Below are positions 22,338 to 24,168 of a stretch of DNA of 64,000 bases, piece by piece (within the stretch, counting starts at the first letter, position 1; the number at the start of each line of letters is the position of its first letter). Under the pieces are notes generated by a model. That model was not told where the DNA came from. It worked only from the letters and a program-made list of their open reading frames with translations, and ran no database searches. The position numbers and the translations under genes are program-made. The DNA is from an uncultured Pseudomonadota bacterium (GTDB taxonomy: Bacteria; Babelota; Babeliae; Babelales; Vermiphilaceae). The stretch covers positions 181,584 through 245,583 of the forward strand of contig CAZBWL010000001.1 of the NCBI GenBank assembly GCA_964495945.1, given 5' to 3'.

Positions 22338-22622
22338 TTATAGACCTCGTTTTTTCCACCATTCTTCATTATGAAATTCTGCTGGAATATTTTCATCATC
22401 TAGATTGCTATATTCACTTTCAAGAATGTCATAATAAATATCTCTTAAATCTTTAGGAAGCTTTTTACCACACCATGGGCAAAAATTAATTCCTTGTACT
22501 GCGTTTGAATTAATTAATGTAAGATTATACTCTCGGTACTTTGGAAAATACAATACAGGCAAACGCTTATCTTCTAGAAAATCATTCATAGTTTTACAGC
22601 AATGGTTTGGCATAATGTACAA
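22338..22622 (-). CDS. putative immunity protein for the adjacent rRNase toxin (HCC...CPWCG small zinc-ribbon-like protein)
   Basis: The 94-aa ORF starts 4 nt after the toxin stop on the same strand. The motifs HCCKTM and FCPWCGKKLP match my recollection of the DUF6980-type small proteins. The immunity role is inferred from position only. Confidence 0.45.
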   Translation of the reverse strand: MYIMPNHCCKTMNDFLEDKRLPVLYFPKYREYNLTLINSNAVQGINFCPWCGKKLPKDLRDIYYDILESEYSNLDDENIPAEFHNEEWWKKRGL

Positions 22623-22626
22623 CCTA

Positions 22627-23538
22627 TTAATTAAGTCTTCTGCCTTTAATGGCTTCTTTATAAAAATAAAGTTTTTCAGGGTCTATTGATCCCAAATGCA
22701 TTTTTCTTTTATTGTAAGCTTCAACATCATTATGTAGGGCATCCCACTCAAGATATTCAGCTTTATTTATTCCATTACAATGTTTTTTCTTTTTATATAC
22801 ATTATCATATAAATGGTCATATTGGTCTTTTATTTTCTCAAAAAATTCTGTTTTGGAAATAGAGTTTCTTCTTCTGTTTTTATCATCATCAGGATCGGGA
22901 GCTCCTCCTGCGCAGCCCTTTGTATACTCTTGTTGCATTTGAGCAAAAGTAATCTTTTTATTCTTTTCAAATTTTTGCCATAATCCAATCCCAAGGGCTC
23001 CTAATCCAATTCCGGCACCAGTTAACGTTATTCCTTCGCCAAGCGCCCAAGAAAAAGCTACGACAATAGGAAATGCATTATGCGTGAGAATGTGCGATTG
23101 TGATGCAAAGTATGTATGCGGAGCGTTAAGGGTGATTTCGTAAAAAGGTAGCGATTCAGCAGATTGTATTTCTTCGATATCGAGGCATGGAATGCTGTTG
23201 CCATAATAATCGAGAAAGAGAGATTCGCTATCGATTTCTTGAACAGGGACCCATTGTTTTAGCCGTGGATCATAAAATTTTTGGTTTTTAGAGCACGTAA
23301 TAGAGTCATGTTCCAAATGGACACGATAATATGTATGAGAATATATGATACATGAGCGAAGTAACGTATTGTTACTGATAAGATGCTTATCAAGATCAAA
23401 GCTTAGAATAATTTCGCGCTGAGAGATGGCTTCAATTGGCTTGAAAGATGTATCAGTTTTTATGAAAGTTTCGGGAGAAAATCCTGCATGTATTACATTA
23501 ATGATGCTTAATAAAAGTATGATATATGTTCGATTCAT
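22627..23538 (-). CDS. polymorphic-toxin-like secreted protein: signal peptide, Hint domain, glycine-zipper segment, colicin E3-like rRNase domain
   Basis: Signal peptide MNRTYIILLLSIINVIHA. The Hint-like module ends PHTYFASQSHILTHNA. The hydrophobic Gly-zipper is GAGIGLGALGIGLW. The C-terminus YLEWDALHNDVEAYNKRKMHLGSIDP aligns with the colicin E3 catalytic core YEWDSQHGELEGYRASDGQHLGSFDP, including the D-x2-H-x3-E spacing. Confidence 0.65.
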   Translation of the reverse strand: MNRTYIILLLSIINVIHAGFSPETFIKTDTSFKPIEAISQREIILSFDLDKHLISNNTLLRSCIIYSHTYYRVHLEHDSITCSKNQKFYDPRLKQWVPVQEIDSESLFLDYYGNSIPCLDIEEIQSAESLPFYEITLNAPHTYFASQSHILTHNAFPIVVAFSWALGEGITLTGAGIGLGALGIGLWQKFEKNKKITFAQMQQEYTKGCAGGAPDPDDDKNRRRNSISKTEFFEKIKDQYDHLYDNVYKKKKHCNGINKAEYLEWDALHNDVEAYNKRKMHLGSIDPEKLYFYKEAIKGRRLN

Positions 23539-23568
23539 ACGGCTTCATTACCCTCAGTAGCTGCTTAA

Positions 23569-23997
23569 TTAAAGTTCTATTATCCATTCAGAATAGTCAT
23601 ATCCATCGTTTGGATGCATGGTATATTTAGGAGGGATAAAGGTATAGCACGATGAGATAGTGAAGGGTTTGTTTTTTAAGAAATCTTTTGCGTCATTTCC
23701 TATTAATTGTTGATTAGATATATATACTTTATTGTCCTTTTTATACATAATCCACCAGTTAAGGTATGGTGCAATATCTGGGTCTTGAATAGAGGCCACA
23801 AGACATGATGTATTGTGCGTTTTAATTCGCTGGAGCGCATACTTCCATTGTTGAATGTAATTTTCTATAGTCCAATAGTCTAATGCGCAAGCGATAGTTT
23901 CGGTAAAATCGTCTCCAATACTCATAGTTCCAAAGCAAATGGAGCAATCGTTTTCTATTGTTTGTGTAGATGGATTAATTGTGATTTTCAATTTCAT
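23569..23997 (-). CDS. hypothetical protein, possible orphan immunity-type protein
   Basis: The ORF 23569..24069 is trimmed to the ATG at 23997 (MKLKITINP). No signal peptide. The pattern IGDDFTE..L.YW....Y.QQW ... YSEWII-end reminds me of CdiI-type immunity families, but that is memory only. Confidence 0.35.
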   Translation of the reverse strand: MKLKITINPSTQTIENDCSICFGTMSIGDDFTETIACALDYWTIENYIQQWKYALQRIKTHNTSCLVASIQDPDIAPYLNWWIMYKKDNKVYISNQQLIGNDAKDFLKNKPFTISSCYTFIPPKYTMHPNDGYDYSEWIIEL

Positions 23998-24168
23998 ATT
24001 ATTTACCATTTTTGATATAAGGGAATATGTGCCGCATCGTTTTTTATATATTTTTACGGAGAGTAGCATATGTTATTAGTTTTGATGTTTTTTGTATTAC
24101 ATGCAACTACAATTGCAATGGAAGAAGAGAAAGAAATCGAATGGGGCTCATTGGATAAAAAATCTGTA

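Follow-up and report, generated by a model that had tools for sequence, protein, structure and literature searches.

Zhang et al. 2012 (PMC3482391) described HINT domains as toxin-releasing peptidases that are linked to export by the general secretory (Sec) pathway and by type II secretion (T2SS), and they placed the RNase domain Tox-ColE3 among the toxins of polymorphic toxin systems. The combination of a signal peptide, HINT and Tox-ColE3 already forms a category in their survey, in which only Imm-Cloacin and Imm45 are named as immunity proteins for Tox-ColE3. Here, we describe a related locus in a 64,000-nucleotide stretch of DNA from an uncultured bacterium (the window; contig CAZBWL010000001.1, positions 181,584 to 245,583). 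The cassette lies on the minus strand and encodes a CdiI_N-family protein, a putative toxin of 303 amino acids with a colicin-E3-type RNase domain, and a small DUF6980 protein (Table 1). The three open reading frames (ORFs) are present exactly where a sequence-only reading of this DNA had placed them. They are separated by 30 nt (CdiI_N gene to toxin gene) and 4 nt (toxin gene to the 94-aa ORF; 13 nt if this ORF starts at ATG 22613), and they look like one operon. We interpret the cassette as a three-gene polymorphic-toxin locus in a variable spot 3′ of the transfer-messenger RNA (tmRNA) gene ssrA, and regard the proposed explanation, taken as a whole, as moderately probable.

The window system belongs to the polymorphic toxin systems, namely to their Sec, HINT and Tox-ColE3 category. 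Its toxin shares an N-terminal module with proteins that end in unrelated toxin domains, the gene downstream is matched to the toxin type, and both orphan modules and cassette arrays are found in the family.

The RNase domain and its DUF6980 neighbour

The 303-aa protein was proposed from its sequence to consist of four parts, a Sec signal peptide, a Hint domain, a hydrophobic segment and an E3-like rRNase, and this division is supported by hidden Markov models (HMMs), by the predicted fold and by comparative evidence. Our own HMMs match the protein with E-values of 5e-91 for the N-terminal module and 7e-44 for the E3-type C-terminus. Pfam PF09000 (Cytotoxic) recognises residues 260-300 with 26.5 bits in the whole protein and 29.1 bits in the C-terminus alone, in both cases above the curated cut-off of 22 bits. 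In addition, a profile of nine E3-type C-termini from the family finds colicin E3 in the PDB with an E-value of 5.6e-6. In the alignment to E3, D266 corresponds to D510, H269 to H513, E273 to E517, H281 to H526 (the 'HLGS' histidine) and R300 to R545, which agrees with the D-x2-H-x3-E spacing recognised earlier, and the equivalents of all five residues are invariant in 9/9 E3-type members. According to Walker et al. 2004, as cited in PMC4905994, D510, H513 and E517 are essential for E3 and R545 contributes, while Zhang et al. 2012 (PMC3482391) identify the second histidine as the one that is kept throughout the fold. D266, H269 and E273, together with H281 and R300, are the predicted catalytic residues of the window toxin. 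The region 225-303 is modelled with a predicted local distance difference test score (pLDDT) of ~88. The domain is assigned to the E3 type, and its activity would be to cut the decoding centre of 16S rRNA; for E3-type RNases the cut lies between A1493 and G1494.

The gene directly 3′ of the toxin gene encodes a protein of the DUF6980 family, which is predicted to be small and cytoplasmic and probably binds zinc via four cysteines. The sequence-only reading had singled out this ORF as a tightly coupled immunity candidate and had pointed to its HCC and CPWC motifs. These motifs turn out to define the family (PF22400, E 5.7e-16, well outside the range of chance matches), in which C8, C9, C48 and C51 show little or no variation (102 sequences). 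Because the conserved HCC must be included, the gene starts either at TTG 22622 (94 aa) or at ATG 22613 (91 aa), and a 92%-identical homologue of 91 aa (P0173) favours the ATG. An automated gene call of 83 aa (P0174; L001 2323-2574) starts too late and loses the HCC; the 91- or 94-aa version is the correct one.

The pairing of the two genes was surveyed by sequence look-ups and a metagenome scan (24 loci), in which all ORFs were classified with our own HMMs. DUF6980 is located directly 3′ of an E3-type C-terminus at 33 ORFs, that of the window included, at distances of -4 to +41 nt (22 unique full pairs). Five E3-type C-termini have no DUF6980 next to them: two are at contig ends, one is adjacent to an ankyrin protein and for two (L022, L043) none was detected. 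The pairwise identities of E3-type C-termini and of DUF6980 proteins are correlated (Mantel r 0.57, reached by 0/2000 permutations), and shared ancestry contributes to this correlation. The pairing is kept on other scaffolds too: in Rickettsiales Ac37b, DUF6980 comes after a filamentous-haemagglutinin protein and after a LysM-Cytotoxic protein, and GvMRE, the Glomus endosymbiont, encodes it after a 217-aa Cytotoxic protein. In plasmid contexts (Streptomyces, Megaera), no toxin was recognised adjacent to DUF6980. As judged from conserved neighbourhood and co-divergence, DUF6980 is very probably the cognate immunity protein of the window RNase.

In total, 752 DUF6980 proteins were found. The window protein has a confidently predicted fold (pLDDT 89; predicted template modelling score, pTM, 0.75), for which the PDB contains no fold neighbour (best E 2.1). 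It has no sequence match in the PDB, ImmE3 structures included, in line with the earlier remark that it does not resemble ImmE3. For the 102 DUF6980 members, neither Imm45 nor the cloacin/ImmE3 Pfam families appear among the 25 families listed of the 32 matched. The possibility that DUF6980 is Imm45 was considered and rejected, as no HMM relationship was found among the families listed. DUF6980 is not mentioned in the literature searched. Since Zhang et al. (PMC3482391) give only Imm-Cloacin and Imm45 for Tox-ColE3, the assignment of DUF6980 as an immunity family for E3-type RNases appears to be new.

The N-terminal module and the exchange of C-termini

The predicted signal peptide consists of MNR, a 13-residue hydrophobic core and the cleavage site IHA|GF, which obeys the heuristic -3/-1 rule; these features agree with the Sec signal claimed by the sequence-only reading. 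An N-terminal hydrophobic leader is also visible in the family members inspected. The following region has a Hint fold in the AlphaFold model of the toxin (pLDDT ~88 over residues 20-155). The best Foldseek matches of the model are bacterial intein-like (BIL) domains (6y75, E 1.6e-13; 2lwy, target TM-score 0.93), with dozens of inteins and Hedgehog (1at0) ranked behind them, and phmmer aligns the window toxin with the BIL2 domain 6tmm/6y75 at E 0.002. The Pfam model PT-HINT (PF07591) matches the close homologues P0002 and P0004-P0008 and 115 of the 142 family representatives.

Gly19 occupies the Cys1 position of the Hint domain, which confirms the replacement of this cysteine seen earlier, and Gln86 is found at the position of the block-B histidine. 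Among the 142 representatives, the Cys1 equivalent is Gly (78), Ala (29) or Ser (28) and never Cys, and the block-B position is occupied by Gln (118) or His (21). The block-F histidine is present in 134 representatives and the terminal His-Asn in 142/142. The +1 residue is Phe, Ile, Ala or Val in 122, with Cys, Ser and Thr not among the common residues, and the +3 residue is Pro in 118. Because Gly, Ala or Ser is found at the Cys1 position and Gln at that of the block-B histidine, only C-terminal cleavage is plausible for this family, and N-terminal cleavage and splicing are not expected. Furthermore, after the predicted signal-peptidase cut the mature protein would begin with the first residue of the Hint domain, and no N-extein would be left to remove. 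The simplest reading of the conserved residues, combined with the knowledge on inteins and BIL domains, is that the Hint domain probably performs a single-turnover cleavage at Asn154|Ala155 by Asn cyclisation. Three long proteins, P0030 (1435 aa), P0062 (3411 aa) and P0149 (1064 aa), carry three or four tandem Hint copies, which suggests that they are multi-cleavage polyproteins.

The predicted Hint cleavage would turn the glycine-rich hydrophobic segment into the new N-terminus. This segment had been described as a glycine zipper, and residues 155-188 do carry overlapping GxxxG motifs. It represents the most conserved block of the toxin family, with P157, W164, G167, G174, G178 and G183 as conserved positions. 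The segment is only marginally hydrophobic; in a simple additive Hessa estimate, its best 19-mer reaches +2.7 kcal/mol, and the family median is +3.0 with no member below 0. In the AlphaFold model the segment has a pLDDT <50, and the whole stretch 157-217 is of low confidence.

A homology search with the window toxin retrieved 18 relatives, all of which have a signal peptide, a Hint domain, an invariant THN-x-P junction, the hydrophobic segment and a PDPDDD-type linker. After the linker, their C-termini belong to three unrelated types, Cytotoxic, 'type 2' and Ntox21. When the N-terminal 204 positions were used for an exhaustive profile search, 115 clusters (at 50% identity) were obtained at E<=1e-30; most members have 290-330 aa, and the module starts at residue ~1-15. 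In the C-terminal Pfam census of the 142 representatives, Ntox37 and Cytotoxic were each found 16 times, Ntox21 14 times, Ntox35 four times and Ntox33 once; the remaining C-termini are without a recognised Pfam domain. The lack of a delivery scaffold, which had been regarded as unusual, holds true for the locus and is not peculiar to it, because the scaffold-free layout of ~300 aa defines a widespread family.

In its N-terminal module, the window toxin shares 45-59% identity with clade 1 but only 24-31% with clade 2, and its C-terminus is 52-59% identical to the C-termini of clade 2. By these identities the window toxin is a mosaic, since its N-terminal module is nearest to clade 1 and its C-terminus matches clade 2. 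The toxin of locus L002 corresponds to the window toxin as far as '...FAQMQQEY(A/T)KGCAGGAPDPD', beyond which it has an Ntox21 C-terminus. In the family alignment the C-termini likewise diverge after the PDPD motif, which marks the switch point of the C-terminal cassettes. The immunity gene tracks the toxin type: Cytotoxic is associated with DUF6980 (33 ORFs), and Ntox21 with CdiI_N (L002, L019 and Duffyella).

Several related loci show further arrangements. The 'type 2' C-terminus (YLDSLHKDHLEVF...LNLDGT) is found in P0004, P0005 and P0007-P0010. A relationship between this type and the E3 type is unproven (hhalign probability 1.4%, no PDB or Pfam match). Downstream of a type 2 toxin, DUF6980 is encoded in L014 (7001-8292) and an unrelated 102-aa protein in L004 (6001-7250). 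L031 (1-4686) contains tandem cassettes, namely an orphan C-terminus, a full toxin and a C-terminal fragment, each with DUF6980. A truncated toxin and a DUF6980 fragment are present in L014 (8391-9407), and the truncated toxins P0002 and P0003 stop just before the catalytic core. In L006 (658-5825), a toxin and two DUF6980 genes form an inverted duplication around two IS200/IS605-type Y1 transposase genes, and DDE transposase fragments are located outside the inverted cassette copies.

From these features, the following mechanism can be proposed. The 303-aa protein would be exported by Sec and cut by signal peptidase after Ala18, leaving the Hint domain to start at its own first residue. Without an N-terminal nucleophile and block-B His, but with the block-F His and the terminal His153-Asn154 retained, this domain would cut itself behind Asn154 and free a fragment of ~149 residues that comprises the glycine-rich hydrophobic head, a flexible basic linker and the colicin-E3-type RNase. 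The RNase would inactivate ribosomes at their decoding centre and, more speculatively, the hydrophobic head could insert into the target membrane and help the RNase to cross. The downstream DUF6980 protein would block the RNase, and new pairs of C-terminal toxin and immunity cassettes would be swapped in by recombination just 3′ of the PDPD motif. An extended version, in which delivery is scaffold-free and self-contained, His-Asn self-cleavage unmasks a head that alone carries the RNase across a bacterial membrane, and DUF6980 is a new zinc-binding immunity family, is offered as a tentative and somewhat doubtful possibility.

Several observations weigh against this interpretation. No secretion or outer-membrane transport genes adjoin the cassette. 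No Pfam Hint model matches the window toxin itself at E<=1, and the Hint call is derived from fold and family. The E3-type call is derived from sequence, and the Foldseek list of the toxin model is filled by Hint matches. Behind the E3-type member P0013, the next gene (L007 5973-6488) encodes no DUF6980 but an ankyrin-repeat protein of 171 aa; this protein may be an alternative immunity protein, and Zhang et al. (PMC3482391) list an Imm-ank class of immunity proteins. DUF6980 also follows a type 2 C-terminus, which is not demonstrably E3-like, in L014. The local alignment behind the possible toxin remnant upstream of the CdiI_N gene is not significant; it scores 25, as compared to 19.6 +/- 2.8 in shuffles, and 32/500 shuffles reach this value (p ~0.06). 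Finally, the conserved basic stretch QKFEKNKK after the hydrophobic segment fits the positive-inside rule, and because of this the RNase might remain membrane-anchored in the cytoplasm of the producer.

If so, the glycine-rich segment would be a stop-transfer anchor. The mature toxin would then have type I topology in the inner membrane: its Hint domain would face the periplasm, and its RNase would be held in the producer cytoplasm by the immunity protein. Such a toxin would not be secreted by Sec and would need lysis, vesicle release or another trigger before it could act, or it would constitute a self-directed addiction or abortive module. This is a rather unlikely explanation, for which we see arguments on both sides. 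Basic residues directly follow the hydrophobic segment in the members examined (QKFEKNKK, LYNKHKQ, WKYFKDRQE), outer-membrane export genes are not found nearby, and the gene of a cytoplasmic immunity protein is tightly coupled. However, the hydrophobicity of the segment is marginal throughout the family, the swapping of C-termini, the arrays of cassettes and the orphan immunity genes are typical marks of toxins that are exported to act between cells, and a periplasmic Hint cleavage would be without obvious purpose. We prefer the reading in which the hydrophobic segment passes Sec and later inserts into the target membrane.

The CdiI_N gene and the genomic setting

The existence of the ORF upstream of the toxin gene had been recognised by the sequence-only reading, and its CdiI_N identity emerges from the present analysis. 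The protein matches CdiI of Enterobacter cloacae (4ntq_B) with an E-value of 4.3e-10. The partner of this CdiI is a CdiA-CT toxin that is E3-like and acts on 16S rRNA (PMC9086364), and that belongs to Ntox21, not to Cytotoxic (PMC3482391). Within the toxin family studied here, P0006 ends in an Ntox21 domain that is homologous to 4ntq_A (E 3.5e-7), and 1 nt 3′ of this toxin a protein is encoded that is 71% identical to the window CdiI_N protein, counted from the Met25 equivalent. The upstream frame in the window, 23569..24069 (-), corresponds to 166 aa and includes an in-frame read-through of 23998..24069; because the match of the 71%-identical protein starts at the Met25 equivalent, the start at 23997 is supported. 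The order Ntox21 followed by CdiI_N recurs in L002 and after CdiA on a Duffyella plasmid.

Other than in the window, no CdiI_N gene is present at any E3-type locus examined. The window contains neither a toxin-like gene upstream of the CdiI_N gene nor a second cassette, and the upstream neighbour is a divergent methyltransferase gene from 24070. Since the orthologue directly follows an Ntox21-type toxin, whereas the window has no such toxin, the CdiI_N gene is probably an orphan immunity gene. It would be either the relic of a lost Ntox21-type cassette or a gene kept against the Ntox21-type toxins of neighbours. Over the 72 nt upstream of 23997, only the gene junction of ~20 nt is clearly common to L019, and a tblastn search for an Ntox21 toxin remnant upstream of the gene gave no match.

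The known function of E. cloacae CdiI, which neutralises an E3-like 16S rRNase (PMC9086364), the match to 4ntq_B and the location 30 nt upstream of the toxin gene on the same strand could also indicate that CdiI_N is the actual immunity protein or acts as a second one, with DUF6980 serving as an export chaperone or adaptor or in another role. We consider this very unlikely, because the 71%-identical orthologue and three more homologues follow Ntox21-type toxins and never Cytotoxic-type toxins, and because no CdiI_N is found beside the other E3-type ORFs examined, while DUF6980 follows 33 and co-diverges with the RNase domain.

The target of the toxin can be judged from the same data. Bacteria are a likelier target than the host in view of the probable orphan immunity gene and of the arrays of cassettes at related loci. 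On the other side, Ank, WD40 and PLA2_B genes occur in the loci of relatives, and short Hint toxins and DUF6980 are found in Babeliales, Glomus endobacteria and Rickettsiales. DUF6980 also occurs in several endosymbiont lineages. These neighbours and lineages are compatible with a host-associated lifestyle, although this is suggestive only, and the same holds for the reduced intracellular-type genome supposed by the sequence-only reading. They would also suit a host-directed effector of an intracellular bacterium that cuts eukaryotic or organellar small-subunit rRNA and for which DUF6980 is only a means of self-protection before export; the E3 target site is part of the conserved decoding centre. 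A host effector is nevertheless quite improbable. Such toxins of intracellular bacteria are typically without immunity genes (Zhang et al., PMC3482391), whereas immunity is nearly universal here and often duplicated. Moreover, the retention of a probable orphan immunity gene directed at a sibling type of toxin fits a conflict of bacterium versus bacterium, and a host-delivery system is not linked to the locus.

The G+C content of the cassette region is 0.335 versus ~0.39 as the window mean. The cassette is 2.4 kb away from the tmRNA gene ssrA (19565-19925, +; Rfam model RF00023), which encodes the tag GESNFASAPALA. Upstream of ssrA, the window contains DUF2062 and, further upstream, TsaD, and a 150-aa ORF (19046..19498) sits at the smpB position of L004. 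In this second genome, the P0008 cassette with its different toxin type is also located beside ssrA (L004 7666-8051, -). As the P0008 locus has the same ssrA neighbourhood, the site 3′ of ssrA looks like a conserved variable spot. A search for ssrA-derived direct repeats, as in an att-like island boundary, revealed none that are convincing, the only repeats being those that flank the GIY-YIG genes, and a promoter and terminator scan found fewer promoter-like sites than in shuffles. A P-type ATPase of the window has a 67%-identical counterpart in an uncultured Pseudomonadota metagenome-assembled genome with several paralogues of the toxin family.

Between ssrA and the cassette, there are two 80-aa GIY-YIG ORFs (20137-20379 and 21591-21833) and a 48-nt 3′-end remnant of a third (21916-21963), each with a GC-rich repeat of 36-55 nt (19975-20010, 21475-21529 and 21850-21904). 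A GIY-YIG ORF also adjoins the cassette in L004. The GIY-YIG ORFs and their repeats may be small mobile elements that help to rearrange the region. A 247-aa Cys-rich protein with a signal-like N-terminus and without a Pfam match is encoded between the GIY-YIG genes (20461-21204, +). On the other side of the cassette, two paralogous SAM-dependent methyltransferases (24070-24981 and 25964-26800, +), both with hydrophobic N-termini, enclose a weakly DUF218-like ORF (25018-25908), and a 303-aa ORF without a Pfam match follows (26811-27722).

Table 1. Features of the toxin cassette in the window, with positions, strand and supporting evidence
Feature	Position (nt)	Strand	Evidence
Toxin gene, 303 aa: signal peptide, Hint, Gly-rich hydrophobic segment, linker, E3-like RNase	22627..23538	-	ORF; 18 close homologues; own HMMs
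Signal peptide, aa 1-18, MNRTYIILLLSIINVIHA, predicted cut IHA|GF	23485..23538	-	hydrophobic core TYIILLLSIINVI; -3/-1 rule
Hint/BIL-type autoprocessing domain (predicted), aa 19-154, end His153-Asn154	23077..23484	-	Foldseek; family PT-HINT matches
Gly-rich hydrophobic segment, aa 155-188, AFPIVVAFSWALGEGITLTGAGIGLGALGIGLWQ	22975..23076	-	overlapping GxxxG motifs; family conservation
Basic/flexible linker, aa 189-220, Pro/Asp-rich, with PDPDDD (aa 214-219, nt 22882-22899)	22879..22974	-	family alignment
Colicin-E3-type RNase domain (predicted), aa 221-303	22630..22878	-	PF09000 above gathering cut-off; PDB profile match
DUF6980 gene, probable cognate immunity protein, Cys4 motif HCC...CPWC	22338..22622	-	PF22400, E 5.7e-16
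CdiI_N-family gene, 142 aa, probably orphan immunity against Ntox21-type sibling toxins	23569..23997	-	PF18228, E 1.5e-20
Possible relic (decayed 3′ end) of an Ntox21-type toxin gene now lost	23998..24069	-	junction GGTAAATAATATG common to L019; weak

Comparison with known systems

The locus is of interest beyond the window. A likely function, immunity to colicin-E3-type RNases in several phyla, can be given to the DUF6980 family, and its confidently predicted fold has no solved relative. The toxin would represent a large and minimal class of polymorphic toxins, in which a signal peptide, a C-terminal-cleaving Hint domain, a hydrophobic head and an exchangeable toxin are combined in a protein small enough to dissect. 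The Hint variant may be a natural single-turnover C-terminal cleavage module and could interest protein engineering. Full cassettes and orphan immunity genes in host-associated-looking lineages suggest that bacteria-versus-bacteria conflict takes place there, a conflict that Zhang et al. 2012 (PMC3482391) considered rare in the host-associated niche. If scaffold-free delivery proves true, it would allow host-associated bacteria with small genomes to wage inter-strain warfare without type V, type VI or type VII secretion systems (T5SS, T6SS, T7SS).

Among the described systems, the HINT toxins of Zhang et al. share with the window toxin the signal peptide, the HINT domain just before the toxin and the ColE3-type RNase at the C-terminal end, as well as an immunity gene directly 3′, cassette swapping and orphan modules. 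They differ in that the window toxin has no stalk or repeats (RHS, FilH, MafB-N), and its Hint domain directly follows the signal peptide. This Hint domain is without Cys1 and block-B His, a glycine-rich hydrophobic segment is present past the cleavage site, and the immunity protein is DUF6980, not Imm-Cloacin or Imm45.

Colicin E3 with ImmE3, and likewise pyocin S6, have a homologous RNase domain, in which D510, H513, E517 and R545 are kept, and a small immunity gene directly 3′. In contrast to these bacteriocins, the window toxin has no receptor-binding or translocation domains and is encoded on a chromosome, not on a plasmid, and DUF6980 resembles no solved structure, that of ImmE3 among them, either in sequence or in predicted fold. 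The CdiA-CT/CdiI pair of E. cloacae ATCC 13047 (4NTQ) is related through CdiI, which is homologous to the window CdiI_N protein, and through the Ntox21 domains of the P0006 and L002 toxins. Different from this contact-dependent inhibition (CDI) system, the toxin and its neighbours contain no CdiB, TPS domain, FHA repeats or VENN motif, and the CdiI_N gene is without a cognate toxin and is located upstream of a toxin of another type.

BIL domains (2LWY, 6Y75) are the best structural match of the Hint domain; they also occur in secreted or variable proteins, cleave rather than splice and have a non-nucleophilic +1 residue. The BIL domain 6tmm/6y75 retains the block-B motif T-x-x-H (CTVNH) and had Cys1, as evident from the C1A mutation made by the depositors, whereas Gly, Ala or Ser and Gln are found at these positions in the window family. 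In prePAAR/Eag-dependent effectors of the T6SS, such as Tse6, N-terminal transmembrane helices are proposed to carry the toxin across the inner membrane of the target. The window contains no T6SS, PAAR or Eag genes next to the toxin, and its hydrophobic segment would be exposed by self-cleavage and not by release from a chaperone. Within the literature searched, four features of the window system are new or undescribed: the ~300-aa architecture as a large family, the Hint domain predicted to cleave only C-terminally directly after a signal peptide, the hydrophobic head that would be exposed by this cleavage, and DUF6980 as the likely immunity family of E3-type RNases. The probable orphan CdiI_N gene is a further point that is specific to the window locus.

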